From NCBI GenBank assembly GCA_965216875.1, contig OZ244207.1, positions 4,128,001 to 4,192,000 of the forward strand: a DNA stretch of 64,000 nt, written 5' to 3'. This document shows, one piece after another, positions 43,117 to 63,216 of the stretch. Position 1 is the stretch's first letter. Every line of letters begins with the position of its first letter. Made by a program: the position numbers and the translations under genes. The notes under the pieces were generated by a model. That model had not been told where the DNA came from. It saw nothing but the letters and a program-made list of their open reading frames with translations, and made no database searches. This stretch comes from Rubripirellula sp. GTDB taxonomy: Bacteria; Planctomycetota; Planctomycetia; Pirellulales; Pirellulaceae.

Positions 43117-43283
43117 CGTGAGCCGAAGGCGCTAGCCTCGGGCCACAGATACAAAGACGAAAGGCCCCTGACAAGCACGGCCACGCAAGGCCCGACGCTA
43201 GCGCGTTCGGCTCACGATTCGTTCGTAGTACCGCCTTTAGGCGGAAGAGCATGCAGATTCCGGCAAAAGCCGGTACGACGAAC
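43117..43283. repeat. REP cluster (CGTGAGCCG doublet and GTAG doublet)
   Basis: CGTGAGCCGAA...TTCGGCTCACG (43117-43216) and GTTCGTAGTACCG...CGGTACGACGAAC (43221-43283), between convergent genes. Confidence 0.85.
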
Positions 43284-43285
43284 GG

Positions 43286-43990
43286 TTAATTGGAATTCGG
43301 TCTCAATCCGGCCGTGGTGGCTCGGCGGACGGGTTGGCGGTTGAGGTAGCCGCGGACCACTTCGTCATGACGAATCCCGAGCTGCGATCGCGAAGACTCC
43401 GTTTTCCCCTCGGGCGCGACCACCAGCACTGCGTTCTGTTGCCAAGTTTGCTGGAAATGCGATGCCGAAATCCGCAGGTTTCCTCGCAGCGGGTCCGCAA
43501 GGAAGACGCATCCCGCCGCAACACCTCGATAGACGACAAAATGGTTCGTCCCGCCGATATCGACAACGACAATCAAAGGCACTTTGCTGCCGGTAAGATC
43601 CGCAAACGAAACCTCGCCGACGCTTGCCAAGAACCCCATCTCCTTTGCCGCATCCGAAACATCAGCCATCGTCAGGCCTTCGCGTTCGCGGTCACGTAGC
43701 TGTGCGCTACTCAACATGTTTTCGACAACGCCAAGCACCATCGGCTCGTTGACATCGTACCCCCAGTAGTACCTTAACAGCGTTGCCAGCGCCGCTGCGC
43801 CACACGAGTAGTCGCGTTGCTGCATCACAATGTTGCGGTTTTTGATTTCGCGCCAACTAAAGACCGGCTTGGCCGCTTGAAAGGCTGAATCACGAACCAC
43901 AGCTCGCGAGCTGACTTGCGCGTGGGCCGAAGTCGATGTGACAAAACCTGCAACGCAAAACGCGATCACCGCAACGGTGGTTTGCCGCAT
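43286..43990 (-). CDS. Stand-alone periplasmic C39 peptidase, FapD-like
   Basis: Sec signal (MRQTTVAVIAFCVAGFVTSTSAHA), SWREIKNRNIVMQQRDYSCGAAALATLL, NHFVV and LADPLRGN; no ABC domain. Alternative start at 44023. Confidence 0.88.
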   Translation of the reverse strand: MRQTTVAVIAFCVAGFVTSTSAHAQVSSRAVVRDSAFQAAKPVFSWREIKNRNIVMQQRDYSCGAAALATLLRYYWGYDVNEPMVLGVVENMLSSAQLRDREREGLTMADVSDAAKEMGFLASVGEVSFADLTGSKVPLIVVVDIGGTNHFVVYRGVAAGCVFLADPLRGNLRISASHFQQTWQQNAVLVVAPEGKTESSRSQLGIRHDEVVRGYLNRQPVRRATTAGLRPNSN

Positions 43991-44010
43991 GCGTTTACTC
44001 GACGGGCTAC

Positions 44011-45270
44011 TCAGTAGGTCCATATCACTCCAGCCTCCATTCCAGGTGCTGAATCAGTCACGCCGAAGTTGACAAACGGCTCCACCAAGCGGCAGTTGTG
44101 TGCAATCGTCGCCGCTAATCGAATTCGTGACGGCTCGATGTCCGATCCAGGCAGATAGACTCCATCGACCTTGGTTTCGGTGACATAGGACCCAAGAAAC
44201 GCCGTGCTCAGCGTGATACGCTCATTGGCCGCAAAACCGACTCCGAGGTTGTAAAAGACCTGGTGCCCGAGATCGACGTTTCGATTCGCAAAACGTTCTC
44301 CGAAGTTGTACGTGTATCCAGCGCCGTAAAAGAGAACCAGCGGGTCCCAAGATCGGATCACCAACAAATCGGCACCCACGTTCCAAACTCCATTTCCCAA
44401 TCCGCTGCTGTTGATCACCAGCGGATTGACGTTGGTGTTTGTTGGTGCCGCGCCTCGCAGCGTCAAAACCGTCGACTTGCTGCGGCAGGAGTCCTGGCAC
44501 AGCAGAAACGTGCCGCCGAAAGTGATGTCGCCAAAACCAAAGTCGCCACCACTGATGTCATCGAACGAATCCGAAATCTCGGTATCTGAAAACCCAACCG
44601 GTGCGTTGATGAACAACTGAGCCCGATCGGTCAGTCCATACCGCACGGCCAAGGGCACGAACCAGTTTCGCTGACGAATTTCCAATCGATCAAGCACCGG
44701 ACCTGGACCACCGAGTGTTGGCCCGTGGTTTTCTTGCAGGCCATAAACCAGTCCCATGTCAAATTGCCATTGGCCCTGACGCAACAGCGGAGAAACACTG
44801 CGCAAAAATTGCGGCGTTCGATCGACTGGGGCTTCCCCATAGTTTTGGATCTGCCGTGCCGTCCGTTGGGCTGCGACGGTGTCGACGGGAACCGCGTTCT
44901 GTACTCCACCTTCCACACTTGCCGGCAATTCGCCAGCTGTTTCGACCGATTCGGAAACACCCTGCGTCAGAACCACGGACGCAACCTGCGCGGCCACGAA
45001 CGTGTCCGTTTGTGGCGAGTTGTTTGCGTCAGACGGAGTGGTTGCTAGAAGTGTCGCTCGAGCTTCGAGTGTCTCGAGCTGAGTCGTTTCCAACTGCGCG
45101 ACACGACCATACGTCAGTCCTAACGTGTGATCGAGTTCTTCAACGTTGTCCGCCTCGGTTGGTAGATGCTCTACCAATTGGGCTTTCGCAGTCACTGGAA
45201 CGGACGAGCAAATCCCGCCCGCCAGCACCACCAATGCGGTCCTCAACCGCCTAACCATTCGACCATCCAT
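44011..45270 (-). CDS. FapF-like (COG4313/SphA-type) outer-membrane beta-barrel transporter
   Basis: Signal peptide and long N-terminal periplasmic segment, then RYGLTDR, GFGDI, GNGVW, DPLVLF, GVGFAANERITLS and GVTDSAP, ending in an aromatic residue. Confidence 0.8.
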   Translation of the reverse strand: MDGRMVRRLRTALVVLAGGICSSVPVTAKAQLVEHLPTEADNVEELDHTLGLTYGRVAQLETTQLETLEARATLLATTPSDANNSPQTDTFVAAQVASVVLTQGVSESVETAGELPASVEGGVQNAVPVDTVAAQRTARQIQNYGEAPVDRTPQFLRSVSPLLRQGQWQFDMGLVYGLQENHGPTLGGPGPVLDRLEIRQRNWFVPLAVRYGLTDRAQLFINAPVGFSDTEISDSFDDISGGDFGFGDITFGGTFLLCQDSCRSKSTVLTLRGAAPTNTNVNPLVINSSGLGNGVWNVGADLLVIRSWDPLVLFYGAGYTYNFGERFANRNVDLGHQVFYNLGVGFAANERITLSTAFLGSYVTETKVDGVYLPGSDIEPSRIRLAATIAHNCRLVEPFVNFGVTDSAPGMEAGVIWTY

Positions 45271-45415: not shown

Positions 45416-46456
45416 TTACCAGGCGAAACCGGTCGCCAACGTCAATCCGACCAGATGGCTATTCTGTTCGCCACCAACCGCACTTGCCGTTGCAAGACTG
45501 AAACCGGGGCTACCTGAGGCCGAAACGGCAATGGCATTGCCGTCGCTACCGCCCCAATACTGGTACTCGCCACCGATGCGGGCAAACATGCGGCCGTTGA
45601 AGCTGCGAACGTAGCGCGACCACTGCAAACCGAGTCCAACTTCGCCGATGAACATGGTGGTGTCATCCTCATCGACCGCGCCATTGGTGCTTCCCGCTGC
45701 ACCACCTGGTCCAGAAAAGGACGAGTGCGTGATTGCACTGGTGTTTGCTTCGCCAAAGACGGTTGATCCGCGTCCGTTGACGTAAAGCGACAAACAACGA
45801 CAACGATTGATCGTCTTGAGACCTGACAGACTAAAGGTCAAACCGGTCCCGCTGAAGTGCTCGCGTTGGTACGACGCCAAATTGAATACGTCACCGTTGA
45901 TCGCACCATACATGTTGTTGACGCGGTTGCGGCTTGTCTTTGCATGACGAACGCCAAACGTTCCGACCATCGACCAATTGCGGCGGCAAAAGTCTTTGGT
46001 CAATTCCAAGTCGATCGTGTAGGCGTTGAATCGATCGTCACCGCCGAGCGCTTGGACCTGGTTGCCAAGAATCGGAGCAGGAATGCCATTGACCGATTCC
46101 TGTGCGGTCAGTTCCCAGTAGCGAGCTTGCCAGCCCAGTCCGCTTTGGCCGACGTAGCCCAAGTTGATTCGAGGAGCGCCCTCAAGACGTTCCGATGCGG
46201 AACCAAAGGTTGAGTTGAGCGTGATGGTTGCTGGACCGAGTGGGTCAGTAAACGTGAACGCTGCCGCGCCCGAGTCGTAGATCGGGGCGAGGTAGGTTGC
46301 TTCGACGCCAGCGTAAAGCGTGCCACAGTCATCCGGACAACATGCCGATGCAAGCGCATCGCATTGATCTTCATCGCAGCACTGGTCGGCATTGAGATGT
46401 GGGGTGACACATACAAAGGCGACTGACAGCGCCCATTTGCAGAACCGTTTCATCAT
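45416..46456 (-). CDS. Outer-membrane beta-barrel (Lpg1974/BBP7-like) with a Cys-rich leader
   Basis: Signal peptide, CCDEDQC...CCPDDC, YAGVEATYLAP, PRINLGY, amphipathic strands and C-terminal GLTLATGFAW. Confidence 0.75.
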   Translation of the reverse strand: MMKRFCKWALSVAFVCVTPHLNADQCCDEDQCDALASACCPDDCGTLYAGVEATYLAPIYDSGAAAFTFTDPLGPATITLNSTFGSASERLEGAPRINLGYVGQSGLGWQARYWELTAQESVNGIPAPILGNQVQALGGDDRFNAYTIDLELTKDFCRRNWSMVGTFGVRHAKTSRNRVNNMYGAINGDVFNLASYQREHFSGTGLTFSLSGLKTINRCRCLSLYVNGRGSTVFGEANTSAITHSSFSGPGGAAGSTNGAVDEDDTTMFIGEVGLGLQWSRYVRSFNGRMFARIGGEYQYWGGSDGNAIAVSASGSPGFSLATASAVGGEQNSHLVGLTLATGFAW

Positions 46457-46881: not shown

Positions 46882-46915
46882 AAAAAAAACGGGCCGAGTC
46901 GTATGACTCAGCCCG
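46882..46915 (-). terminator. Intrinsic terminator downstream of the small secreted-protein gene
   Basis: Minus strand reads CGGGCTGAGTC-ATAC-GACTCGGCCCG followed by T8. Confidence 0.85.
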
Positions 46916-46976
46916 CTTTGCGTAAACGAGGGTGATTTATGGATGCTCGCCCAAAGCATGAAATGCCTGAGATGGG

Positions 46977-47339
46977 CTAGAAGCCACCAGCAATGGAGAA
47001 ACCACCAGCTGCCGAAACGTTGAACCCGGATCGGGCACGCGAGAAGTTTGCTCCCGCTGCAAAGCTGCGTCCGCGGAAACGGTAGCCATTGGCCGACTCG
47101 GAGTAACCATTGCGACTGGTCGCGTAGGCGTAGGAACGTCCCCAAACCACGCCACCTTGTCCTCGGATCTGCGAGCTTTCATTGCGGTCCATCGAACGCA
47201 TACCGCTCAATCCCATCGCGCTCAGGGCGTTACTACTGATTCCCGAGTCGCTCGTTGTACGGAACGGATCGGCAGCATCTGCCTGGGTAGTAATCGTCAA
47301 CGCCAAAGCAACCGCCAAAACACCTAACAGTCGATTCAT
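46977..47339 (-). CDS. Small secreted precursor protein: signal peptide, leader ending in IRG, then a Gly/Ser/Ala/aromatic core
   Basis: GAGG SD before ATG 47339; MNRLLGVLAVALALTITTQADA | ...AMGLSGMRSMDRNESSQIRG | QGGVVWGRSYAYA...GGFSIAGGF. Confidence 0.85.
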   Translation of the reverse strand: MNRLLGVLAVALALTITTQADAADPFRTTSDSGISSNALSAMGLSGMRSMDRNESSQIRGQGGVVWGRSYAYATSRNGYSESANGYRFRGRSFAAGANFSRARSGFNVSAAGGFSIAGGF

Positions 47340-47434
47340 CAAAGCACCTCGTCTTGTCTCAAGCAGGGTCTCCCGATGGTTGTCACCACCAAGGTGAGCA
47401 ACTCCTCAGAGAGGGGGAGCCGAATACCTGCCCC

Positions 47435-50073: not shown

Positions 50074-50139
50074 GTAGTGGATGAGGCCACGAATCCCTCA
50101 AACGCACCCAGCCCAAGGACTCGTTGCCTCGTCCACTAC
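50074..50139. repeat. GTAGTGGA-family REP doublet overlapping the monooxygenase stop codon
   Basis: GTAGTGGATGAGGCCACGAATCC...GGACTCGTTGCCTCGTCCACTAC. Confidence 0.75.
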
Positions 50140-51359
50140 TTTTTTAGCGCCGCGACATCAGCCAAATTCTTTAGGTTGCTGAGAACATGATCGGTATCAG
50201 GACCAAAATCGAGCAAACAGGCGATCTCGGTCACTCCGATCGCCTGCAGTTCTCGGCATGTCGCGGCGCATGATTGCACCGTCCCCATCAACGACCGGCC
50301 ACCAATGAACTTGTTCAACATCCACTCGAGCATTTGATCGAGTTCTGCTTTTGGCAAAGTTTCCAAATCCATTGTCTGCCCTTGGCTCACCGCCAATTGC
50401 TTGAGCAGTCCCAGGTTGTCGCGCAGGTATTCGCAGTAGGCTGCACCGGCTTCTTCCCGAACTTGGTCAAACGTTTCGCCCACAAACGTGTGCAGTGTGA
50501 CTGCGATTTCGCCCGGTCCTTGGTGCCCGGCACGGCCTCGTGCTTGCCGGTAGATGTCAACCTTGACCTTCAGTTCACCGATGTCCTGATTGAAAAGGTG
50601 CGTCAGAACGCCAACACCCATTTCGCCGGCGCGGCGAAAGGTCTCGGGATTGCCCGCGGCAGTCAACCAAACTGGCAATTCGGGTTGCACCGGCGTTGGG
50701 TAGGTTCGGACTGAAATCGAATCACCCGTCCCACTTGCGCGTTGCACCTCTTCGCCTCGCCAAAGCCGGCGCACCTGATCGATTCCGTCGTACATGTTGT
50801 CCGATCGATCTTGATACGCCTCAGGAGCGAGCACGAAGTCATCGGGATGCCAACCAGAAGCAAAGGCAAGCTCCACTCGCCCACCTGACAAATTGTCGAC
50901 CACGGCCCATTGCTCAGCGACGCGAAGTGGATCGTTCAGCGGCATCACAACACTGCCCGCTTTGAGTTTCAAGCTCTTGGTTCGACTTGCAATCGCTGCA
51001 TGTAAAACCGCGGGACTGGGATAAAGGCAACCAAACTTTGTGAAATGGCGCTCAGGCAACCAAATCCCATCGAAGCCGTGGCGGTCGGCAAACAAGGCCG
51101 CTTCGGTCAGCAATCGATACTTGTCCCCCTTGGCGTCCGTTTCCTGGTCTCCAAAAAACATCAACGACATTCTTAGGTCGGACGCATCACCATCAGCAAC
51201 CACGTCGGCTTTCGAAGCGTCGCGGATCGCCTGCAAACACTCCTGCTTGGTTCCCGCGATCGTTGTACGCGTCCATCCGCTGGGCACATCGCGATCGATG
51301 GGCCAACACGACGAACGGCCTGTTCCATTTTGAACGACGATGTAACGTTCCGTCTTCAC
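50136..51359 (-). CDS. MbtH-like domain fused to a MupA/Atu3671-type luciferase-like monooxygenase
   Basis: N-terminal YIVVQN...SCWP...VPSGW...KQECLQAI, then SLMFF, WLPERHF, LRVAEQWAVVDNLSGGRV, ASGWHPDDFV and EIACLLDFG. The GTG start overlaps the megasynthase stop. Confidence 0.88.
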   Translation of the reverse strand: MKTERYIVVQNGTGRSSCWPIDRDVPSGWTRTTIAGTKQECLQAIRDASKADVVADGDASDLRMSLMFFGDQETDAKGDKYRLLTEAALFADRHGFDGIWLPERHFTKFGCLYPSPAVLHAAIASRTKSLKLKAGSVVMPLNDPLRVAEQWAVVDNLSGGRVELAFASGWHPDDFVLAPEAYQDRSDNMYDGIDQVRRLWRGEEVQRASGTGDSISVRTYPTPVQPELPVWLTAAGNPETFRRAGEMGVGVLTHLFNQDIGELKVKVDIYRQARGRAGHQGPGEIAVTLHTFVGETFDQVREEAGAAYCEYLRDNLGLLKQLAVSQGQTMDLETLPKAELDQMLEWMLNKFIGGRSLMGTVQSCAATCRELQAIGVTEIACLLDFGPDTDHVLSNLKNLADVAALKK

Positions 51360-54300
51360 GATTCACCCCTCGCGGACTTTGGCAAAGCCTTGGGGTCATG
51401 AAGATGCCCGTACGCCACACAACCGACTTCGATTCCGGCGCCGACCGAGACGAGCAGCCACGTTTCGGATTTCGTTGTCTTGAGAGTCTTACCCAACGCG
51501 ATCGCAATCGTTGACGTAAAGGCATCGCTACCCTGCGAATCGGCTGCGACCACGGCATCAACATCAATGCCAAGGGCTTGCGCAACCACAATCGGGGCAA
51601 TGCGAGTTGGGGTCGTCACCAAGACGCGATTGAATTGTGCAATCGACGTTCCTTCGCGCCCTAGGAAGTCATCAACGGCGTCGATCAAACAAGCGACAAC
51701 GGTCTCCTCGAGATCATCCGACCGTTCGATCTCCAACCTCGCCACGCGCTGGACCAGACGCGTTCGCGTTACGAGTTTGCCTGCGTGCTCTGGATAGGAT
51801 TTAAAGAAGAACTCACCGAAACCCTCGCTCGCGTTGTCGGTCCGTTCAATTGCAATTGCTGACCCACCAATCACAAGCCCGTACTGAGCAAACGACCGAT
51901 CATTGTTCTCAGTTTCCGAGGCGGTGATCAAAGCACGCTTGCCCGCTCCTGTTCTCAGCGACCCGGCAACCAGACTGCACGCAACAAGTGGCCCGCGAGA
52001 GCTGTCGGTCAAGTCGTAGGCAAGCCCTCGGCTATCGCCCTCGGCAACCTCGGCCATCCCCAGCTCTCCCGACACGATCGCCGCAACGGCTGGCTCACTA
52101 AGAAACTCGTCCCGATACACGCCTGCATGAATCAACATGTCTACATCACTGGCTTGCCAGTCGACAGAAGCCAACGACTTGGAAGCCGCGGCGAGGCTGG
52201 TTCGGACAACGGACATTTCAACCGCACTCTCGATGCTGCCATTAAGATTCGGTTCCTGCGTTTCCTTGACCCAAGAGGTCGCCACAATACGAGTCCCGAA
52301 CAATTGATTCGGTAGGGTGATCGGGGCAACCGAACTCGACTTGGTTCCATCAGCAATACGCTCGGGGAGCGAATCGAAGGTATAGAGTGCTGTCCCGATC
52401 GTTTGCCCCGAACCACTGATGGCGAAAACAGCGCGATCCTCTTTCTGTATTCGTCCGCCAAGAATCATGTCCATCACCGCGACCCAGTGGGTCGTGCTGG
52501 CGGTGTTGCCACGATGCGTCAAGTTGTTGACGGTATTCTTGTGATCACACACGGTTGCATCGAAGTGTCGATTGAGTTCCTCAATCGCTCCATCGAGCGT
52601 TGTCGTCGACGTTTGATGCATGATGACGTGTTGAATCTCGTCGGGCCGCCACTTTCGTTGAACCAACGATCGATGCGCGTGGTTGACCGAAAGGTCGAGT
52701 GTCACGGCCGACGCTTTCACAGCATCGGTGTACATGATCGCGCCACCGTGCGGGCGGTCCGTCACTTTCGCAACGCACAAATCATGGTGCCGTCCATCGG
52801 TGTAGAGATCGAGGGACTCAAATCCATAGCCACTGTCGGTCAGTTCTACGATCACCGCCGCACCGGCATCGCCGAGCGTCAAACAAGCCAGACGAGGATC
52901 AAGAAACCCTTCGATTTCCTTTTGGGCCGTTTTGGTTAGGTGCGTGATGTACTCGCCACTGACAATCATCACGCGCGCCGCCTGACCACTGCGCAATTGG
53001 TCTTCTGCAATGGAAAGGGCTGTAAAGAACCCAGCGCAGGCGTTGCATACATCAAACGCCAATGCCGAAGTCGCACCAAGTCGCTGCTTCAGTTTGGAAG
53101 CCGTTGAGGGTTCATAGGAAACTTCGAAGTCCGGCCCGTCGTAGCGAGAGATATTGCATGCGATAAGCGAATCAATCTCGCCCGCTTCGAATCGTGAGTT
53201 TTCGAGACAGCTGATCGCGGCCTTGAATGCGAGATCGATCGCGAACTCCGTTTCCCCGGCAACGTGTCGACTTTGGATTCCCGTCATTCGCTCAAGCGGG
53301 AACTCAAGTTTTTTCTGGCAACCTTCGATGACCTCATCGGTCGTCTCGGTCGCAGGGGGCAGATAAGTGCCTAAACTTTCGACCGTCATCTTCAACGAAG
53401 TCGATCGCGACGGTTCCTGCGCAACAGAATCGATCGTTTGTTGCCCGATCGGCTGGCCCAAGACATCTGGCTCGGCCGCAGCCTGCGTTTCAGCTGCGGG
53501 CCCGTCGGCATCGATCGCGGCAGCCAGCTCGGCGACGGTCTGGAACTGAAACATGCGTTCGGCCGACACTGAAAAGCCTTCACGCATCGCCAGCTCGGCG
53601 GCTTGAAGTGCCTGCAGTGATGCGCCACCCAACTCGAAAAAGTTGTCGTGAATGCCTACCGAAGGGACATTCAAGACCTTGCACCAAATCGCTGCGATCA
53701 CCTTTTCCGTTGGTGTCGATGGCGGAACGGCCTCGGTGGCTTCAACTGCATCACTGGGATCTGGCAAGCGGGTTGCATCCAGTTTGCCGCTCACGGTCAA
53801 CGGAAATGCGTCCACACCGACAAACGCTTTGGGGACCATGTAGCAAGGCAAATGACTTGCGACATGCTTGCGAAGATCGGCTTGGAAGGAAGCGTCATCG
53901 GCATCGCTGCTGCGAGGCCGATCGGCGAGGTAGTAACCGACTAAGCCGATTCCCGAGTGATACAACACGTGAGCGTCTTTGATTGACTTGCCCGCGCGCA
54001 TCACGGCCGCGATCTCACCCGGCTCGATTCGATTTCCGTCCACCTTGACTTGGTCATCGATGCGGCCGAGGAATTCAACCTCACCCGTTGTCGTCCAACG
54101 CGCGCGATCGCCCGATCGATACATCGAGGCATCAAAAGCATCGCTAAAGGGGTTGGGCACAAAGACGTCCGCGGTCAACTCGGGTCGCCCGAAGTATTCA
54201 AGCGCCAATCCGGGACCTGAAATACAAAGTTCACCTGGAACGCCGATGGGCATCGGTTCAAGATGCCCGTCCACAATCTCGATTCGTACGTTGGACACCG

Positions 54301-57300
54301 GTTGTCCCAACGAAGGCTCTGTTCCGTCACCCGAGCATTGGTGAGTCGACGCCCAGACGGTCGTTTCAGTTGGGCCGTAGGCGTTGAACATTCGCCGAGG
54401 GTTTCCGGCACGTTCGATCCATTTGTCGACCAGCTGCGCCGAACAGGCTTCGCCCGCAGAAATGACGGTATGCAAAGCGGGCAAGTCGTCACTCGAAAGC
54501 GCCGACAAAACCGACGGAGGCAACGTCGCGACGTTGACATTTGAACGGCGCAATTGGTCTGTGATTTCACCAGTTGACGACCGAACGACCCCCGGGTCGA
54601 TCACATAAAGCGTCGCTCCGGCATGAAGTGCCAGAATGATTTCGAAAACGGACGCGTCAAAGTGCAACGAACTGAACTGCAGACATTTGTCGCTCGCCTG
54701 AATACCAAATGTCTTGCGTTGGGCCACGGCCATGTTGGCGATTCCGCGGTGCGTCAGGACGGTTCCCTTGGGTTTCCCAGTCGATCCAGAGGTGTAGATC
54801 AGGTAGGCCAAGTCATCGTGCGTGACCTTCGGCAAAGCAACGCGTTCGGAGTTCCCGAAACGAGCTTCGTCACCACCAATCGACACCACGACGCGATACC
54901 CACCGAGCGCAAGTTCATCGATCTTGTTTTGATCTTGGTCGGTCAAAACCACGTCAGGCGAAGCGTCGGCAAAGATCGCCTGCAATCGCGATCGAGGGTG
55001 TGCCGGGTCAAGCGGAACGTATGCAGCGCCCGCTCGCCAAGCAGCCATGATTCCGATGATCGATTCAACGCCTCGACCAGCCAACAACCCGACGATGTCC
55101 CCCTTGCGGGTTCCGGCCGAGAGAAGCCGAGCCGCAACGCTGTCGACACGTTGATCGAGTTGGCGATAAGAGATTGCCGCCGATTCCGATTCGAGTGCGA
55201 TTGCATCTGGCGTTTGCTTTGCCCATTGCCGAAGCAATGCGTCACCCGCATGATCGGGATCAAAATCGACGTGCGTATCGTTCCACCGCGTGATGCACTC
55301 CTGCTGTTCCAACGAAAGCAGCGGCGCGGTGCGAATCGGAACATCGGGATTGATGGCGATCGCATCAATCAACGTATTGAAGCTCTGCGAAAGACTCTCG
55401 ATCGCTTCGTCGCTAAACAAATCGGTGTTGTAGCGAAATGTCAGCTTCAATTCGTCTTCGAGTTCGAATACGATCAAGGTCAAATCAAAGGGAGCGCCGC
55501 GCTGTTCCATCAACAACGGCTTGAGCCTCAAACGGTCGCTCGACTTACCCGGCGCGAAGTGCGATTCTTTGAGGTGCCGCGGCTTGTCCCAAATGAACAT
55601 CGTCTGGATCAGCGGCGATCGACTCGTATCGCGGAGCGGCCGGACCTTCTCGACCAGTTTGGCAAACGGCAACGCTTGGTGCTGCAACGCGTCGAGTACT
55701 TCGCGTTGACTGTCACGAAGCACATCACGGAACGTCGGCGAACCGTTGATCCGGGTTCGCAAAACAAGCTGGTTCAGGAAATAGCCGACGATCCCTTCCC
55801 ATTCCGAACGTCCGCGACTCGCCGAAACCGTTCCAACGAGCAGATCATCCTGGCCACAGATGCGTGACAAAAACGTTTGGTACGCGGCAAGCACAATCGT
55901 GAACAGTGTCGTTCGTTCTTCAACCGCAACATCGCGAAGCGATTCGACAACCTCCGTCGGGACCGTCCACTCCAACGATTTTCCGTTGAACGTCTGCTCG
56001 GCAGGACGCTGGTAGGTCGTCGGCAACTCCAATACATGCGGTGCACCTTCGAGTTTGCGTTGCCAAAACCGCCAAAGCTGCTCGCCCTCTTCACTAGTGT
56101 CGAGCCCGCGCTCCCAATCGACGTAGGCGTCGTAGGTCGTTGGCAGTGTCCCCAAATCGATCGTCCCGCCACCAACGATCATTGCGTAAAGGTCAAGCAA
56201 CTCCTGGATCAACACGTCCATCGACCACAGGTCGGCCGCAATATGGTGCATCGCGATCGACAAGACGTCTCCCTTGCGACATCGCAAGAGCGTGAAACGA
56301 ATGACCGGACCGTCCTGGAGATCAAAGGGGGCGTCGGCTTGATCGCGAATCCAATCGACCATGCGGCTCCGCTTCCAATCCTGGCAGTCCTTTTCGGCAA
56401 TCTCGACATCGATCGAATCGGACAAAACGCGAACCGCGGCATCACCATCGAGTCGATAGCGAGTTCGCAAGACGGGATGGCGTTTGACGAGCGAGCGACA
56501 TGCCTTGGTCATCGCGTCGCGGTCGATCGTGCGCGACGTTTGTGCTGCAAAGGCAAAGTTGTACGCGGGGCCCTCAGGAGCACGCTGGTGAATCAACCAC
56601 AAAGCTGTCTGACCGACCGACATCGGACCAAGCACACGCTCGCCCGTCGACGGTGACCGGCGAGTGGCGATGTCGGTGGTTTGCGGTTGCCGTTGCGACG
56701 AGGGGTCGGTTGCCAAATCCGACGCTACCCGGTCGGCAACACTCACTTCCTGACGGTCTCCGCGAGGAACAATCGAGCGAGGGTCGACTTCTTGGGAATC
56801 GAGCGCAATGCTCATCAATTGCGTGAGCGACTTGCCCTCAAGGAACGCGACCATCGGCACCGACAACTCAAGCTCCGACGAAAGTCGGTTCTTCAATTGA
56901 ATCGCCATCAACGAATCGATACCGAGATTGGACACCGGCTGGTCGATGTCGATCTCAGCCGGATCATGCTCAAGCACTGCGGCAACGGCGTGACGAAAGT
57001 AGTCTTCGAGCGCTGCTCGGCGACCGTCAACGTTGCTGCTTTGTTGAAACGCTTCAACCCACTTGGACAGGTCGACTCGCGTTTTCCCGGCTCTCTGAGC
57101 TGAACGGTTCCCCAATGATCGTGATGCGGATTGCGAACTCGTTGCTTTCTGAGGCCTCGAATCATCGCCTACACCGGTCGCAACCAAGACCGCTTGGCCT
57201 TGTTGGACGCGCGCCAACGAAGCATCAGGAGCGAGGATGGCGGGGTCGCGATACCCGCATCCATTCAACAGTTGCAGCCAAGCTTTTGAATCAATCAGAG

Positions 57301-60300
57301 GATAGTTCGGCCTCAACTCCGAATCTTCGAATCGCCACCACCCTTCGGTCAGTCCAAAGATCAAATCGAGCATCGGCTCGGGGCGGACGCCTTCGAGTGC
57401 CACCAACAAACCGCCCGACCTGAGCAATCGATTTGCGTTGGACAAGGTCCGTTTCAAGTCACTCGTCGCGTGAAAAACGTTTGCGGCGATCACGATGTCA
57501 AAAGCGTCTTCTTCGAATCCTTGCGACTCGATGGTCGATTCGATATCGAGCACTTGAAACTCGAGCGAGCCCGAGGCTTCTTGAGAAGATTCGAAGCGTC
57601 CCGACGCTTCCGCCACGAGCAGCGGCGAGACATCGGTGAACACATAGGATTCAACCTTATCTTTGATCGCGGGCCAAACGAAACTTGTCGTTCCGCCCGT
57701 GCCGCCTCCGATTTCAAGCACGCGTATTGGGCGCGATGGATCGTGCGCCAATTGCGTGTCGATCGCCGCGACCACCGCGTCGGCAACCGTCTGATTGCAA
57801 ACCTGGGCGACCGGTGAGGCGCGGTAAAGCGATTCCAAATCGGACGCATCTCCGCCAGGGAAAAGGACCTCCAGAGGATCGGTCTGGCCAGCGAGAACGG
57901 ATGCAAGTTTGCTGCCGCAACGAGCCACCAGTTTGAGTTCCCGAGTCACGGAGGGATGCTTTTGCCTCAGTGGTGCAACTGCGCCACACAACTGGGACGC
58001 CTCAATTCGCTGGTGCCCCACAACGCGCCAAGACCTTGTGGATTGATGCTCGATGGGCTCCAGCCATCGTTGGTCAGCCAAAATCTCGCATATGCGCTCG
58101 GCCAAACGCAAATGTTTCGCAGCGATTCGTCCCACTGCCACTTCGTTTGCAAGATCCACAACTTGGCCGTCGCGATCCGCAAGTCCGAGCGTCTCGAACG
58201 CCTTGTACATGTAACGCGCAACCAATTGATCGACTTCTGGCTTTGCAGCAGCGTAAGACTCGAGTTCCTCGGCCAAACCGTGACAGTCTCGATCGCGTTG
58301 CCTATCGGTCACCGACGAGGCAATGGTGTCGGTATCGATGCTCGGCGCGGCATCGTTCTTCGCGTCATCCAACCAGTAGCTTCGCGGTTGGAAGGGGTAC
58401 CCTGGAAGCCGGAAATTCGAAGGTTCCGACCGGTCGCGACTTCCGTTGACTTCATCCCAATCGAGTTCGACACCTCGGCAGAAAAGCTCTCCAACCGCAG
58501 TCAACACACAACGCAAATCGTCTTGACCGCGAACGAGTGTTTGTAAGTAGTCGATAGGGATGTTGCTATTGAGTTGCCCCAAGGTGCAAAGTGTCGGATG
58601 CGGTCCGATCTCGATGGCAACATCACACTTTGACTTGGCCAATGACTCGAGGGCGCGGACATATTGAACTGGCTCGCGACTGTGGCGTGTCCAGTAATTC
58701 GGCGAACAGACTTCCGAAGTCACCTGCTGGCCGGTGAGTGACGAGATATACGTCTTCTCTGGCAACGACAACTTGGCTGACTCGATCACACCTTTGATAG
58801 GCTCGAGCACCGGGTCCATCAGCGAGGAATGAAACGCTTGATTGATTCGCAAAGGCCGTGTTGTGGTTCCCGCTGCCGCCAACGTGTCTTGCAACATGGC
58901 GATTCCCGACGAGGCACCCGAAACCACGATGTGCTCGGGAGCATCGATCGCTGCGATCGACAGGTCCTGTCCAAGTTCATTGATTCGATGCTGCACCGAC
59001 TCGGCCGAATCAAAGACAACGGTCATCGCACCTGCTTGGCTAAGCAGCGAGACGTGACGGGCACGCACTGCCGTCAATCGCAATGCATCCTCCCAGGTCA
59101 TCACACCCGAGATCGCCGCCGCCGCGAACTCGCCCATGCTATGGCCCAGCACGGTCGTCGCACCAGCGCCGAATTGCTCGAACGTCTTGGCGAGCGCAAG
59201 TTGCAACGAAAACAAACTCGTTTGTGCAGCCGGTCCGTTTAGCAATTCGGCCACGGCCCCATTGGTCTCGGGCGACGAAGCGATCAGATCGGTGATCGAA
59301 TGATCGAACTCGTCCCTCAGAAGTTCATCACAGCAATCGATCCACTTCCGAAACGTTGGGAGATGGCGATACAGCATCTGTCCCATGCCGACGTGCTGTC
59401 CACCTTGACCGGTAAACAGCATCGCGATCGAAACCGCTCGGTCAGAGAGGGCCGTTGCGGCGCAAACATGTTCGCTTGCCTTGCCCTCGGCAAACTGCGT
59501 CAACCGCTCCGCAACGGTTTCTTTCGAACTTCCGACAACGGCGACACGATGACGTAGACTCGACCGTTGATATTGGGTCGCCTGTGCGATCACGTCGAGC
59601 TCGCCCGCACTTTGCCGCAATACGTCACCATGCTGGCGAGCCAAATCTGCTAGGCCCTCGACGTGGCCCGACGACAACGTGATTAGACTTGGAAGTGTGC
59701 CGGTTGGACTCGCTTTCGGTGCTCGCTTTGGTCTTTCGCCTTGGCCAACAATCACATGAGCGTTGGTGCCTCCGAATCCAAACGAACTCACTGCCGCCCG
59801 GCGACGCGTTGAGTCGTCCCATCTCGCATTGGTTGTCGAAATCGACAGACGCGATTCATCGAGATCGATGTGTGGATTCAATACGGCAAGGTTCGGCTGC
59901 GAAACCACCTCGCCATGTTCCAGCTCCAACACAACTTTCAAAAGACTGGCCAATCCTGCCGCCGACTCGAGATGACCGAGGTTTGCTTTGACTGCACCTA
60001 AGAAACAGTCGTTGGCCTGCTGTCCGCGTCGGCCATAGACTTGGTTCAGGCTGCGAAATTCGATCGGATCGCCAAGGATCGTTCCCGTGCCGTGCGCTTC
60101 GATTCTGGAAACGGCAGACGGTTCTAGCGCGGCATCAGCAAGTGCGTTTCGATACAGCTGCTGCTGAGCATCACCACTCGGGGCGGTGATACCATTGGTC
60201 AAGCCATCCTGATTAATCGCCGTTCCTTCGATGACGGCACGAATGAGGTCGCCGTCACGCCGTGCCGCCTCAAGCGGCTTCAACACAACCGCAATGCACC

Positions 60301-63118
60301 CTTCGCCGCGACCATATCCGTTGGCACTCGCATCAAAGGTCTTACACAAACCATCGGGCGAGAGCATTTCGCCATCGGTCAGCGTTTCCGAAACTTCGGG
60401 GCTCAGGATTAAGTTGACGCCGGCCACAACGGCCGACTCGCAATCGCCGGACTGAATGGCACGAACGGCTTGATGCAGCGCAACCAACGACGAGGAACAA
60501 GCGGTGTCGATCGACAAACTTGGCCCGCGCAGATCGAAGTGATACGAAAGACGGTGCGCCGCCATGCTTGCCGCGTTGCCGGTCATCGAATAGGTCGTGT
60601 GCCGAGCACCCGAGGCGAGGATCAGCCGCTCGTAGTCGCGATTGGCAATGCCAACGAACACTCCCATGTTGCGGCCACCAACCGAGTTGGGGTCGAGCGT
60701 CGCATCCTCCAGCGATCGCCAACAAGTTTCCAACAGCAATCGATGCTGTGGGTCCATTTGTTTGGCTTCACGAGGCGAGATCGAAAAGAGCGCTGCGTCA
60801 AACGTTGAGACGTCTTCCATCCAACCGGCACGTTGGATGTTGGATTGGCCATTGATCGCCTCGCGACGAGCCGCGGGAGGATCCGCAATGACGTTGCGCC
60901 CTTGCACAAGCAGCTGCCAAAAGTCGTCGAGCGATTCGCATCGGGGCAAGCGACACGCCGCGCCAACAATTGCGATGGCTCCGCTTCGTCGCTGTGCATC
61001 CGCGTTAGACGCCCCAACCACTTCAGGCTGACGTTCGCCATGATCGATTTGTTGATCGCTTGCTTCGGCACTGAGCATCTGCGCGACGGCCGTGATCGTT
61101 GGCGCTTCGTACATCAACGTCGCAGGTATGGGACGCCCGAGATGACTCTCAAGTTCAGCGACCATCTGCACGGCACTGACCGAATCGATTCCGTAACCGG
61201 TGAACGGGCGCGTGACATCGATCTCGTCAGTCGAAAGCCCAAGATGTTTGGCGATCCGCTCGACCAACCACGCTGAGACGTCGGCGGCGGCGACCTTGCG
61301 GGGAGCGTCCAGAGCCGGCCCAAAAGTCAGCGCGTCCTCTTCCTTCTCAGCAGGCCCACGGGATGCAACGCCGTCAAAGGTTTTCGCGAGGTACAAATCG
61401 CGTGTTGCGAGTCGTTTGACCTTTCCGCTTGATGTCTTGGGAAGGGCTCGTTTCGCAATGAGTACCACCCGGTAGGGCTGAACGTCAAACGCCTCGACGA
61501 CTCTCTCGCGGATCGCCGTGATGATTTGCTCGCGTTCCTTCTGGGAACACCGTTCGATCTCCTGCACGATCACTAACTGCGAAGCGTCTTCAACTTCGAT
61601 CTCGAACGCGACGGAAGCGTTGGGGACAAGTTTCGGATGCACGTCGGCGAAACTGGCTTCCACGTCCGACGGCTGAAGGTTGCGCCCGCGAACAATGATC
61701 AATTCTTTCAATCGCCCCGTCACATACAGCTGACCATCGCGCAGGTAGCCGAGGTCGCCCGTTCGCAAGAAACGCTCCCTGCGTCCTTGGATCTCGACTG
61801 CAAAGGTTTCTTCTGAATCGGCTCGTTGCCAGTAACCTTGGCTCACGTGCGCGCCGCTAACGCAAACTTCCCCGACTTCGCCATCAGGTAGCTCACGAAG
61901 CGTTTCGGGATCGGCGCAGACCACCACCTGGTCGCCCGCAGGAGCGCCGCAACTGACCACTTCACCCGTCGCCACAACTCCCGAGGGTGCCGTCGAGTCG
62001 GTGCGATGTTCCCCGCGCGGTCCGCCGGTCACCAACAACGTTGCTTCAGCAAGTCCGTAGCAGGGAAAGAACGCTGAGGACTGAAAACCTATCGACGAAA
62101 ACCGATCCGCAAACCGCTGCAACGAATTCTCACGAACCGGTTCGGCGCCCGTGAACGCAAGCGTCCAATGACTCAGATCCAAACCTTCAAGGTCGGCATC
62201 CCGGATTCGATCCACACAGGTATCGAATGCAAAGTTAGGACCACCACTAACGCTCGCCTTGTACTTGCTGATCGCTTGCAACCAGCGAACCGGCTTCTGA
62301 ATGAAGGATGCAGGCGGCATCACGTGTGTACAGCGTCCCGCGTACAGCACTTGCAACAAGCCACCAATCAATCCCATGTCATGATAAGGTGGCAACCAAG
62401 TCACACTCCAATGATCACGATAGCGTTCGATTTCAAACGCCTCGTAGATCATTTGCAAGTTGGCAAGAAGATTGCCATGCGATAGACAAACGCCCTTGGG
62501 ATCGCTGGTGGAACCGGACGTGTACTGCAACACCGCCAACGAGTCGGGTGACAGGTTGGGTGGCGTCCAATTGGCGGTGTTGCCCGCAAGCGTGTTGCTG
62601 CCTCTCGCCTGGTCAACGGTCGGTGCGTTGGCGAGATCGTCAACGTTGAACCACTTCAATCGGCCAAGCTGTGGTGATGTCTTCAGTATCTGATCGCGAC
62701 GCTCAAAGATCGATTGATCGACCAGAGCCACCGTCGCCCCGGAGTCGCTGACGATGTGATCAAGGCGTTCGTCAGCGCGGCGTGGACGAGGCGGGTAGGC
62801 GGTCACCACTGTCATACCGCTGTAGAGCGTGCCGAACAGCGCTCGCAGGTAGGCTTCGCCAGGCGGGCATAGAATGACGGCGCGCGGCAGCAGGTCGTCG
62901 TCGAGATTCAGCGGATTCGTTCGCAGCTGTTTCGAGATGTTGACCGCCGCGCGATCAAGGTCGCCATACCGCAACCATTTGTCTTCGACCCCATCGCCCT
63001 GAAAGAACGTGTATCCTTTTTCGGCGCAGGACCCTCGGCCGCGATCGATCAGCAGATCGACCACCGTCGAAACGGCGGCAATCGATGGGGGGGGACGGTC
63101 GTTCACAGACTTCGACAT
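51356..63118 (-). CDS. Hybrid FAAL-PKS-NRPS megasynthase: FAAL-ACP-KS-AT-MT-ACP-C-A-PCP-KASIII-KASIII'
   Basis: FAAL: YTSGSTSDPKG, WLPPYHDMGL, PCYGLAEAT. ACP: GIDS. KS: DTACSSS, HGTGT, GHLE. AT: GHSMG, QAFH. MT: LEIGGGTGG. ACP: GIDSL. C: HHIAAD. A: YTSGSTGKPKG, YGPTE. PCP: GGASL. KAS-III: EPSTA, NAC, HQ, GN. A second, Cys-less thiolase-fold domain follows. Confidence 0.92.
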   Translation of the reverse strand: MSKSVNDRPPPSIAAVSTVVDLLIDRGRGSCAEKGYTFFQGDGVEDKWLRYGDLDRAAVNISKQLRTNPLNLDDDLLPRAVILCPPGEAYLRALFGTLYSGMTVVTAYPPRPRRADERLDHIVSDSGATVALVDQSIFERRDQILKTSPQLGRLKWFNVDDLANAPTVDQARGSNTLAGNTANWTPPNLSPDSLAVLQYTSGSTSDPKGVCLSHGNLLANLQMIYEAFEIERYRDHWSVTWLPPYHDMGLIGGLLQVLYAGRCTHVMPPASFIQKPVRWLQAISKYKASVSGGPNFAFDTCVDRIRDADLEGLDLSHWTLAFTGAEPVRENSLQRFADRFSSIGFQSSAFFPCYGLAEATLLVTGGPRGEHRTDSTAPSGVVATGEVVSCGAPAGDQVVVCADPETLRELPDGEVGEVCVSGAHVSQGYWQRADSEETFAVEIQGRRERFLRTGDLGYLRDGQLYVTGRLKELIIVRGRNLQPSDVEASFADVHPKLVPNASVAFEIEVEDASQLVIVQEIERCSQKEREQIITAIRERVVEAFDVQPYRVVLIAKRALPKTSSGKVKRLATRDLYLAKTFDGVASRGPAEKEEDALTFGPALDAPRKVAAADVSAWLVERIAKHLGLSTDEIDVTRPFTGYGIDSVSAVQMVAELESHLGRPIPATLMYEAPTITAVAQMLSAEASDQQIDHGERQPEVVGASNADAQRRSGAIAIVGAACRLPRCESLDDFWQLLVQGRNVIADPPAARREAINGQSNIQRAGWMEDVSTFDAALFSISPREAKQMDPQHRLLLETCWRSLEDATLDPNSVGGRNMGVFVGIANRDYERLILASGARHTTYSMTGNAASMAAHRLSYHFDLRGPSLSIDTACSSSLVALHQAVRAIQSGDCESAVVAGVNLILSPEVSETLTDGEMLSPDGLCKTFDASANGYGRGEGCIAVVLKPLEAARRDGDLIRAVIEGTAINQDGLTNGITAPSGDAQQQLYRNALADAALEPSAVSRIEAHGTGTILGDPIEFRSLNQVYGRRGQQANDCFLGAVKANLGHLESAAGLASLLKVVLELEHGEVVSQPNLAVLNPHIDLDESRLSISTTNARWDDSTRRRAAVSSFGFGGTNAHVIVGQGERPKRAPKASPTGTLPSLITLSSGHVEGLADLARQHGDVLRQSAGELDVIAQATQYQRSSLRHRVAVVGSSKETVAERLTQFAEGKASEHVCAATALSDRAVSIAMLFTGQGGQHVGMGQMLYRHLPTFRKWIDCCDELLRDEFDHSITDLIASSPETNGAVAELLNGPAAQTSLFSLQLALAKTFEQFGAGATTVLGHSMGEFAAAAISGVMTWEDALRLTAVRARHVSLLSQAGAMTVVFDSAESVQHRINELGQDLSIAAIDAPEHIVVSGASSGIAMLQDTLAAAGTTTRPLRINQAFHSSLMDPVLEPIKGVIESAKLSLPEKTYISSLTGQQVTSEVCSPNYWTRHSREPVQYVRALESLAKSKCDVAIEIGPHPTLCTLGQLNSNIPIDYLQTLVRGQDDLRCVLTAVGELFCRGVELDWDEVNGSRDRSEPSNFRLPGYPFQPRSYWLDDAKNDAAPSIDTDTIASSVTDRQRDRDCHGLAEELESYAAAKPEVDQLVARYMYKAFETLGLADRDGQVVDLANEVAVGRIAAKHLRLAERICEILADQRWLEPIEHQSTRSWRVVGHQRIEASQLCGAVAPLRQKHPSVTRELKLVARCGSKLASVLAGQTDPLEVLFPGGDASDLESLYRASPVAQVCNQTVADAVVAAIDTQLAHDPSRPIRVLEIGGGTGGTTSFVWPAIKDKVESYVFTDVSPLLVAEASGRFESSQEASGSLEFQVLDIESTIESQGFEEDAFDIVIAANVFHATSDLKRTLSNANRLLRSGGLLVALEGVRPEPMLDLIFGLTEGWWRFEDSELRPNYPLIDSKAWLQLLNGCGYRDPAILAPDASLARVQQGQAVLVATGVGDDSRPQKATSSQSASRSLGNRSAQRAGKTRVDLSKWVEAFQQSSNVDGRRAALEDYFRHAVAAVLEHDPAEIDIDQPVSNLGIDSLMAIQLKNRLSSELELSVPMVAFLEGKSLTQLMSIALDSQEVDPRSIVPRGDRQEVSVADRVASDLATDPSSQRQPQTTDIATRRSPSTGERVLGPMSVGQTALWLIHQRAPEGPAYNFAFAAQTSRTIDRDAMTKACRSLVKRHPVLRTRYRLDGDAAVRVLSDSIDVEIAEKDCQDWKRSRMVDWIRDQADAPFDLQDGPVIRFTLLRCRKGDVLSIAMHHIAADLWSMDVLIQELLDLYAMIVGGGTIDLGTLPTTYDAYVDWERGLDTSEEGEQLWRFWQRKLEGAPHVLELPTTYQRPAEQTFNGKSLEWTVPTEVVESLRDVAVEERTTLFTIVLAAYQTFLSRICGQDDLLVGTVSASRGRSEWEGIVGYFLNQLVLRTRINGSPTFRDVLRDSQREVLDALQHQALPFAKLVEKVRPLRDTSRSPLIQTMFIWDKPRHLKESHFAPGKSSDRLRLKPLLMEQRGAPFDLTLIVFELEDELKLTFRYNTDLFSDEAIESLSQSFNTLIDAIAINPDVPIRTAPLLSLEQQECITRWNDTHVDFDPDHAGDALLRQWAKQTPDAIALESESAAISYRQLDQRVDSVAARLLSAGTRKGDIVGLLAGRGVESIIGIMAAWRAGAAYVPLDPAHPRSRLQAIFADASPDVVLTDQDQNKIDELALGGYRVVVSIGGDEARFGNSERVALPKVTHDDLAYLIYTSGSTGKPKGTVLTHRGIANMAVAQRKTFGIQASDKCLQFSSLHFDASVFEIILALHAGATLYVIDPGVVRSSTGEITDQLRRSNVNVATLPPSVLSALSSDDLPALHTVISAGEACSAQLVDKWIERAGNPRRMFNAYGPTETTVWASTHQCSGDGTEPSLGQPVSNVRIEIVDGHLEPMPIGVPGELCISGPGLALEYFGRPELTADVFVPNPFSDAFDASMYRSGDRARWTTTGEVEFLGRIDDQVKVDGNRIEPGEIAAVMRAGKSIKDAHVLYHSGIGLVGYYLADRPRSSDADDASFQADLRKHVASHLPCYMVPKAFVGVDAFPLTVSGKLDATRLPDPSDAVEATEAVPPSTPTEKVIAAIWCKVLNVPSVGIHDNFFELGGASLQALQAAELAMREGFSVSAERMFQFQTVAELAAAIDADGPAAETQAAAEPDVLGQPIGQQTIDSVAQEPSRSTSLKMTVESLGTYLPPATETTDEVIEGCQKKLEFPLERMTGIQSRHVAGETEFAIDLAFKAAISCLENSRFEAGEIDSLIACNISRYDGPDFEVSYEPSTASKLKQRLGATSALAFDVCNACAGFFTALSIAEDQLRSGQAARVMIVSGEYITHLTKTAQKEIEGFLDPRLACLTLGDAGAAVIVELTDSGYGFESLDLYTDGRHHDLCVAKVTDRPHGGAIMYTDAVKASAVTLDLSVNHAHRSLVQRKWRPDEIQHVIMHQTSTTTLDGAIEELNRHFDATVCDHKNTVNNLTHRGNTASTTHWVAVMDMILGGRIQKEDRAVFAISGSGQTIGTALYTFDSLPERIADGTKSSSVAPITLPNQLFGTRIVATSWVKETQEPNLNGSIESAVEMSVVRTSLAAASKSLASVDWQASDVDMLIHAGVYRDEFLSEPAVAAIVSGELGMAEVAEGDSRGLAYDLTDSSRGPLVACSLVAGSLRTGAGKRALITASETENNDRSFAQYGLVIGGSAIAIERTDNASEGFGEFFFKSYPEHAGKLVTRTRLVQRVARLEIERSDDLEETVVACLIDAVDDFLGREGTSIAQFNRVLVTTPTRIAPIVVAQALGIDVDAVVAADSQGSDAFTSTIAIALGKTLKTTKSETWLLVSVGAGIEVGCVAYGHLHDPKALPKSARGES

Positions 63119-63216
63119 CGTCCCATTTTGGGGGACGCAATTTTCGGGCAAGAACCAGTTGAACCGACAAGAATAATTCAATTCTTGAGGCTTTTCCAAA
63201 GAAGGTAAATCGCCGC

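Follow-up and report, generated by a model that had tools for sequence, protein, structure and literature searches.

The 64,000-nucleotide stretch of DNA analysed here, referred to as the window, carries on one strand a gene for a small precursor protein (P0001), followed downstream on the same strand by a terminator-like hairpin and by genes for a 10-stranded barrel, a FapF-like pore and a C39 peptidase, in that order (Table 1). The precursor consists of a Sec signal, a leader of 39 amino acids and a core of 59 amino acids. Its gene is a real feature of the window, and the plus-strand frame at the same position is closed. The translation agrees letter for letter with the leader, core and IRG motif reported by a first-pass annotation of this DNA, the motif being residues 58-60 (47168-47160), and the core of P0001 is, as was also reported there, cationic and free of Cys, Pro and Lys, with 7 Arg and 1 Glu giving a net charge of +6. 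The final residue of the signal peptide, A22, is invariant in 7/7 close homologues and at least 90% conserved across 62 family rows. The precursor gene is present once in the 8.26-Mb genome, as is each of its three neighbour genes, and the leader-motif profile search that had been suggested, run against all 94,282 six-frame ORFs of this genome, finds only P0001 with a score of at least 15 bits (36.7 bits, with a runner-up at 11.2). To judge from its nearest named relatives, the host is a Pirellulaceae-like planctomycete. A 269-base contig from one run, presumed to be RNA, covers 47152-47413, leaves the three neighbour genes unmatched, and is not counted as evidence.

Table 1. Features of the locus, in positions of the window
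Feature	Position	Strand	Basis
P0001 precursor gene, 120 aa	46977..47339	(-), 47339->46977	ORF and family comparison
Sec signal peptide, residues 1-22, ending ADA	47274..47339	(-)	read from sequence; A22 conservation
Leader, residues 23-61; motif L39...I58-R59-G60-Q61; predicted C39 cut after Q61	47157..47273	(-)	
Core, residues 62-120; four predicted 11-residue strands (63-73, 78-88, 94-104, 109-119)	46980..47156	(-)	one face small, conserved
Intrinsic-terminator-like hairpin and T run, directly after the precursor gene	46886..46919	(-)	
Outer-membrane 10-stranded barrel, long extracellular strands, Legionella_OMP/OpcA-like fold; proposed anchor or nucleator	45416..46456	(-)	
FapF-like outer-membrane barrel, proposed secretion pore	44011..45270	(-)	NF058560 and PDB FapF matches
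Sec-exported stand-alone C39 cysteine peptidase, FapD/FilB-like, catalytic residues intact	43286..44023	(-)	PF03412

The peptidase (245 aa, with a signal peptide) matches PF03412 above the cut-off (E 1.1e-20) and is a homologue rather than an equivalog of NF058616 (E 1.4e-29, 103 bits against a cut-off of 330), while its match to NF050078 (FilB) is likewise below the cut-off (E 3.5e-24). The catalytic set Q68/C74/H161/D177 is invariant in 25/25 homologues, and a quick tree places 52 of 54 planctomycete C39s in one branch apart from FapD (SH-aLRT 98). The FapF-like protein matches NF058560 below the cut-off (E 7.5e-18, 64.5 bits against 700) and FapF in the PDB (5o67) with E 3.5e-15 over residues 157-412. 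The model of the other barrel protein (346 aa, pLDDT 85) is a 10-stranded outer-membrane barrel with strands of up to 32 residues; among its structural matches, a Legionella porin (9nh1, Z 22.8, 251 residues aligned at rmsd 3.6) and OpcA (Z 19.0) rank best; Pfam Legionella_OMP is matched by 8 of 20 barrel homologues.

Two further elements lie near these genes. A 3,960-aa PKS/NRPS-like ORF, followed by an MbtH plus luciferase-like monooxygenase gene, occupies 50136-63238 on the minus strand, 3 kb from the precursor, and does not recur among 90 related loci. A short element at 43186-43285, common to many contigs of one DNA run, is probably an intergenic repeat.

The precursor family and its genomic linkage

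The precursor belongs to a family of 1,273 clusters at 50% identity, as collected with a 62-row profile. Forty regions were fetched: 39 surround C39 homologues, out of 49 such places, and one surrounds a second precursor match. Small Sec proteins with the same leader lie beside most of them. The family leader carries the strongly conserved motif L..LGL.GM..[MVL]SD.EG..VRG, and across the 62 rows, which are mostly 15-40% identical, G43 and G60 are invariant and R59 is at least 90% conserved; lack of conservation in homologues had been named beforehand as an outcome that would count against the first interpretation. Among the best 150 rows, 148 were anchored at an RG-type motif (two of these wrongly), with VRG in 115 and IRG in 31. 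Counted back from the motif Gly in these rows, the conserved positions are L-22 (96%), G-18 (97%), L-17 (95%), S-10 (81%), D-9 (79%), G/A-6 (95%) and V/I-3 (98%), percentages which are upper estimates, since the leader dominates the profile used to select the rows.

Downstream of the leader the family is far more diverse. The share of the top residue falls from 55% in the leader to 29% in the core, and the cores, of median length 87, vary widely. Of 153 family cores, 24 carry a net charge of +3 or more and 87 a negative one, with a median of -1; Pro occurs in 139, Lys in 70 and Cys in 25; and 36 end in F, W or Y, the subfamily of P0001 often ending in F or W. The cationic, Pro/Cys/Lys-free character described by the first-pass annotation thus holds for P0001 and does not extend to the family. 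Individual members illustrate the range of cores. One of the 62 rows (L060:4830-5435) fuses the family leader to a 145-aa core of curlin-like repeats and matches the CsgA model below the cut-off (E 7.7e-7), while P0001 is without curlin repeats. Two short-core members (L073:980-1303 and L074:6274-6711) show strict V/L alternation, and no second barrel was found in their loci.

Up to 13 precursor paralogues occur per genome. A terminator-like site lies 3' of 60 of the 103 precursors; shuffled sequences show one in 44 of 515 cases, and each of the other three genes in 10-16 of 72-83. Ten of 90 loci (L069, L058, L059, L062, L067, L116, L123, L125, L126 and L127), namely those rich in precursor paralogues and with long barrels, contain a gene for a MamK-like actin (NF040964 E 3e-80, below the cut-off; L069:3988-5085); its product may serve to position an appendage.

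Neither the precursor nor its 62-row alignment has a family in Pfam or NCBIfam, the NCBIfam and Pfam models for FapA/B/C/E and FilA (NF050077) match none of the 62 precursors at E 0.1, and a sequence search of the PDB with the precursor gave no match. In the ESM Atlas the precursor falls in unnamed clusters alone, for which the commonest phylum is Planctomycetota. No paper on the precursor family or the locus was found in the open literature, subscription journals being outside the coverage, and a search for a link to morphology through one named close homologue returned nothing relevant. The family is large and apparently undescribed in the libraries and open literature searched.

The precursor and the peptidase are tightly linked across genomes. 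In an order-level sample of 215 genomes, all outside the family of the window and none supplying rows to the model, the precursor was detected in 28/28 genomes with the C39 and in 1/187 without it, and in 25 of the 28 it lies on the same contig within 8 kb of the C39; related genomes among the positives are not independent of one another, although the positives come from six families. Records named Bremerella cremea (L087), Bythopirellula polymerisocia (L121) and Novipirellula galeiformis are among the carriers of the system. Among 301 genomes of the family of the window, the C39 is present in 42, the precursor in 41 and both in 40, of which 29 had supplied training rows; in the untrained subset the precursor is found in 11 of 13 genomes with the C39, against 1 marginal match in 259 without it. 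In a phylum-level sample of 351 genomes, both genes occur in 2 only, each from the family of the window. The exceptions to the linkage are one genome in 1,190 contigs (G128), which has a C39 without a detected precursor; one (G158) with a marginal precursor match that the leader model does not confirm; and one (G707) in which the precursor is located at a contig end.

The pore and the barrel share in this linkage to different extents. Among 51 named planctomycete loci, many of which are cut by contig ends, the FapF-like gene is present in 50, the barrel in 42 and the precursor in 38, and among 29 loci from other phyla the FapF-like gene is present in 24 and the barrel in none. In a set of 116 genomes, each of the 16 best barrel matches has a C39 of this system no more than 8 kb away; another 27 genomes, genomes without the system among them, hold weaker relatives, and one genome (G015) has no barrel at E 1e-25. 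One locus (L038:7227-8623, in genome G245) retains an intact C39 and a 207-aa FapF fragment, with neither barrel nor precursor detected, and is an apparent remnant of the system. In 90 loci, some of them present twice, a single ABC-like ORF was found and no further neighbour family occurs in more than 11; nor was there a conserved immunity family among the ORFs of at least 70 aa in 90 loci, and shorter or divergent immunity genes may be present. The earlier proposal that the neighbouring periplasmic C39 is the partner of the precursor is very likely correct, given the intact catalytic set and the tight co-occurrence, and export of the precursor in connection with this C39 can be regarded as highly probable.

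Leader register and predicted cut

The C39 domains of PCATs recognise L-12, E-8, L-7 and V/L/I-4 and cut after G-G/A/S, according to the accessible part of PMC6363468. If Q61 is set as -1, then M50, E54, I58 and G60 fall on -12, -8, -4 and -2, and four of the six canonical anchors fit; if G60 is set as -1, only one fits, which is that Gly itself. In the C39 register G60 is thus -2 and Q61 is -1, so that the expected mature N-terminus is GGVVW. The cut is accordingly predicted, from this register, at Q61/G62 (IRGQ/GGVVW), rather than at IRG/QG with QGGVVW or its pyroGlu form as product, as had been supposed. In the family as a whole (n=153) the -1 residue is M in 49 rows, Q in 37, L in 18, K in 18, R in 8, S or A in 8 and G in none, and the residue after it is G, S or A in 136, so a cut one residue further along is possible. 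Of the PCAT anchors, a hydrophobic residue at -12, E/Q/D at -8 and V/I at -4 fit the family; position -7 is G or A in 95%, and in place of the double-glycine ending G-2 is conserved and -1 is mostly non-small.

Leaders of this type are also found behind Sec signals in other systems. FapE, above its cut-off, carries LSDQELSQLRG-R after the signal peptide, and FilA, above its cut-off, carries MDDAALSAATG-Q (L148:7745-8491 and L079:4693-5532, with endings LRG-R and ATG-Q). The annotation had treated the combination of a Sec signal with a C39-type leader as setting the precursor apart from ordinary PCAT-exported bacteriocins; that distinction stands, while FapE and FilA, which carry both, show that the combination has precedents. 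Fourteen Sec proteins picked by hand next to FapD-like C39s carry R (7 proteins), G (5), Q (1, FilA) or E (1) at -1. The C39-type leader pattern is matched by 11 of the 1,175 ORFs in FapD-like loci of other phyla, against 59 of 94,282 ORFs of the genome. Two gammaproteobacterial Sec peptides of 95-97 aa (L139:4624-4917 and L157:6570-6857) have a VRG-E leader and sit beside a C39 and a FapF-like gene; the former has a Cys pair in its core. The planctomycete leader profile scores 0.9 bits on FapE and -0.6 bits on FilA, which is not significant, so the likeness lies in motif and register only, in proteins picked by pattern; from these features we infer that the planctomycete leaders and those of FapE and FilA may share a common descent.

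A 2017 paper showed that Fap secretion requires the catalytic Cys of FapD, a periplasmic protein; its accessible part calls the FapD target 'unclear', reports no peptides from approximately the first 70 residues of FapE, and suggests that FapF is also processed by FapD (PMC5557850). In the part of a 2025 review that is accessible, FapE is only 'thought' to be the target (PMC12822426). The shared register predicts that periplasmic C39 peptidases cut after RG-X with a relaxed P1, and thereby names the bond in FapE and FilA; if it is true, the shared leader fixes the FapD cut site in FapE, after LRG-R.

Core, barrel and the proposed fibre

In the AlphaFold2 model of the precursor (24 rows, pTM 0.42) the leader is poorly ordered, and the core has four 11-residue strands with pLDDT 80-85. 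The fold matches given below point to an antiparallel arrangement, so that the core is predicted to form a four-stranded antiparallel beta-meander; the annotation had called it beta-prone. When the core is read by alternate residues, one face is 72% G/A/S and 2% charged and is conserved (1.37 bits), with G67, Y86, G96 and G113 above 90%, and the opposite face is variable (2.92 bits), a contrast which is descriptive in that the faces were assigned partly from conservation. A charged residue stands mid-strand on the outer, would-be lipid face in 25 of 59 close cores; the comparison of this face with the barrel is void because the barrel control positions mixed both faces. The even number of strands would permit head-to-tail addition of subunits into one continuous sheet, and the geometry of the meander fits a fibre, a tube or a pore. 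Foldseek returned nothing for the precursor model at E 0.001. The best fold matches of the core are the pore-forming sheets of C8 (Z 8.8), RCD-1 (Z 8.4) and gasdermin B (Z 8.2), and the four-strand units of the trimeric autotransporter anchors of Hia, AtaA and YadA match with Z 5-6. Homology of the core to pore formers is not accepted. These Z-scores lie in the range that VIA calls common.

The barrel is considered as a possible anchor for the core. Its outer hairpins show, by eye, an alternation of small residues like that of the core. A search of the barrel with the core profile gave no significant match, and cognate barrel-core alignments score z 0.68 against 0.18 for non-cognate ones (0.31 against 0.28 in the membrane part), a small signal whose permutation p of 0.004 is overstated because the loci are kin; homology between the barrel loops and the core is therefore not accepted and remains a lead only. 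Complex prediction for barrel residues 43-346 with core residues 62-120 scored 0.60, against 0.00 for the best of 3 controls, as a 1:1 association in which contacts agree between runs in at least 94% and partner pLDDT is at least 77. In the benchmark for this procedure 116 of 157 solved complexes reached the mark, as did 2 of 215 mismatched pairs, but those reaching it with a score of 0.60 or less were only 18 of the 157 solved complexes and both mismatches; the controls contained no beta-meanders, and generic edge pairing could score likewise. The prediction lends weak support to the barrel as an anchor and moves that role from a guess to a lead.

The reading favoured here, which is probable although well short of certain, is that the four genes form a planctomycete secretion system that is ABC-free and Fap/Fil-like, in which matured peptides polymerise into surface fibres anchored by the barrel and the precursor is the abundant structural subunit. 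The precursor would be exported by Sec and, as its sequence indicates, lose residues 1-22 to signal peptidase; the periplasmic C39 would then bind the leader and cut after RG-X, here at Q61/G62, a step suggested by register and co-occurrence. Until that cut the leader probably holds the core in an assembly-incompetent state. By homology, the core would leave through the FapF-like pore, after which the four-stranded meanders would pair along their edges to build an unbroken antiparallel beta-sheet fibre, a ribbon pair or a tube, with the conserved small-residue face buried and the variable face outside. The 10-stranded barrel, with its long extracellular strands, would seed this fibre and hold it at the cell surface. 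A structural subunit is favoured by the separate termination of the precursor gene, the presence of up to 13 paralogues and the curlin-like member behind the same leader. Several features count against a fibre: the leader lacks the canonical L-7 and G/A/S-1; the FapA/B/C/E and FilA models show no homology to the precursor; the best core folds are pore-forming sheets, and strands of 11 residues would fit a bilayer; the barrel is missing at some loci and has its weaker relatives in genomes without the system; and in Neisseria the peptides handled by a related C39/FapF pair are cytotoxic, according to the accessible part of PMC11798529. A more specific version, which is tentative, makes the barrel the first ring of the structure, whose strands would be extended by C39-activated meanders as a beta-sheet tube; the assignment of the paralogues as major and minor subunits of such a tube is equally tentative.

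The main rival to a fibre is that the same export and processing deliver a diffusible membrane-active peptide, such as a beta-pore former, a bacteriocin or an autolysis peptide, which is perhaps also amyloid. This is unlikely, with observations on both sides. The core of P0001 has a net charge of +6, but charge is unconserved in the family, and since the cationic, Pro/Cys/Lys-free character is limited to P0001, the membrane-active branch of the first-pass annotation is weakened. The core matches the two-hairpin sheets of gasdermin/MACPF proteins, but with Z-scores that are common for the tool, with a conserved face of G/A/S rather than a polar lumen, and, in 25 of 59 close cores, with mid-strand charges on the face that would have to meet lipid. 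A conserved leader, a hypervariable core and many paralogues are also typical of bacteriocin sets, and toxic cargo is made a live alternative by analogy with the Nap peptides, flanked by a C39 and a FapF homologue (PMC11798529), and with the microcins of A. baumannii, which are both antibacterial and amyloid (PMC13188072), as far as the accessible parts of these papers describe them; against this, no immunity candidate recurs within the scope given above, and a toxin leaves the dedicated second barrel without explanation. The unconserved charge, the mid-strand charges on the outer face and the lack of a recurrent immunity candidate together argue against a pore or a cationic toxin.

Slightly less likely again is a small cell-bound oligomer, in which the core completes or extends the barrel, or forms a 12-stranded barrel like that of a trimeric autotransporter, and serves as an adhesin tip or a channel accessory. 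The four-strand match to the Hia, AtaA and YadA anchors, the F- or W-terminated subfamily of P0001 and a complex prediction that gives 1:1 association alone are in accord with it, but the low frequency of terminal F/W/Y in the family indicates no conserved barrel-insertion signal, and the separate terminator and paralogue expansion point to a product made in excess over the machinery. It is improbable that the leader is a tag for recognition by, or targeting to, the C39 and pore that is uncut or cut elsewhere (G60/Q61 or G62/G63), the real C39 substrate being the pore: the large -1 residues do misfit the narrow C39 site of PCATs (PMC6363468, accessible part), the small residue after -1 could be P1, and FapF processing by FapD has been suggested, but the invariant catalytic residues, the better fit of the anchors with Q61 than with G60 at -1, the range of -1 residues in the 14 hand-picked Sec proteins and the absence of FapE N-terminal peptides in MS, as the accessible text of PMC5557850 has it, count against this.

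If the core does polymerise, the system is a candidate for surface fibres of planctomycetes, a group in which the players in fibre-linked uptake are called unknown in the accessible part of a 2025 review (PMC12673574). The tube built on the barrel would, if true, be a new class of surface fibre and might account for some of the fibres observed on planctomycete cells. A leader-plus-pore route which tolerates very different cores, one of them curlin-like, could also serve for peptide display.

Comparison with known systems

PCAT bacteriocins and class II microcins share with the planctomycete family the leader register -12/-8/-4/-2 and the combination of a conserved leader with a variable core (accessible parts of PMC6363468 and PMC13188072), but the planctomycete precursor has a Sec signal, its protease is periplasmic and stands alone, there is no ABC transporter or C39-ABC fusion, and its leader is non-small at -1, has G/A at -7 and includes the extra upstream element L..LGL.GM. 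The trimeric autotransporter anchors share the four strands, but the model of the precursor contains no coiled coil and a terminal F/W/Y is found in only the 36 of 153 cores noted above. Curli are distinguished by curlin repeats, which P0001 does not have.

The nap island of Neisseria (NapP C39, NapF) places genes for small GG-leader peptides between a C39 and a FapF homologue, with periplasmic cleavage proposed, and the Naps are helical, cationic and 16-36 aa long, with candidate immunity and holin genes, according to the accessible part of PMC11798529. The planctomycete cores are, in contrast, predicted to be beta and are variable in charge, and their system has a Sec signal and a second barrel.

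The closest resemblances are to Fap and Fil. The Fap system of Pseudomonas (FapABCDEF) is alike in its Sec-exported FapD-like C39, its FapF-like pore and the absence of an ABC exporter, as described in the accessible parts of PMC5557850 and PMC6173800, and FapE likewise combines Sec export with an internal C39-type leader that has RG-X at its end. The planctomycete system has the C39 peptidase and the FapF-type pore, both scoring far below the FapD and FapF cut-offs, but lacks homologues of FapA/B/C/E and N/Q repeats; its subunit, with a 59-aa core, carries the leader itself, and it adds the 10-stranded barrel. The accessible part of PMC6173800 notes fapD-fapF pairs in five further phyla, among which the pair of the planctomycetes may already have been counted. 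The putative Fil pilus of Acinetobacter (FilA NF050077, FilB NF050078, FilC NF050079), for which a literature search found no paper naming four of five Fil terms, is alike in having a Sec subunit with a leader ending in TG-Q, a C39 (the FilB match given above), the FapF-related FilC and the subunit gene in first place; it differs in that FilA has 279 aa and a core unrelated to that of the planctomycetes, and no counterparts of FilE and FilF were seen in 90 loci. Neither the peptide family nor its four-gene export system is described in the family libraries or the open literature searched. The locus would work like Fap or Fil and is a member of neither, their subunits being absent or unrelated and the barrel being an addition.
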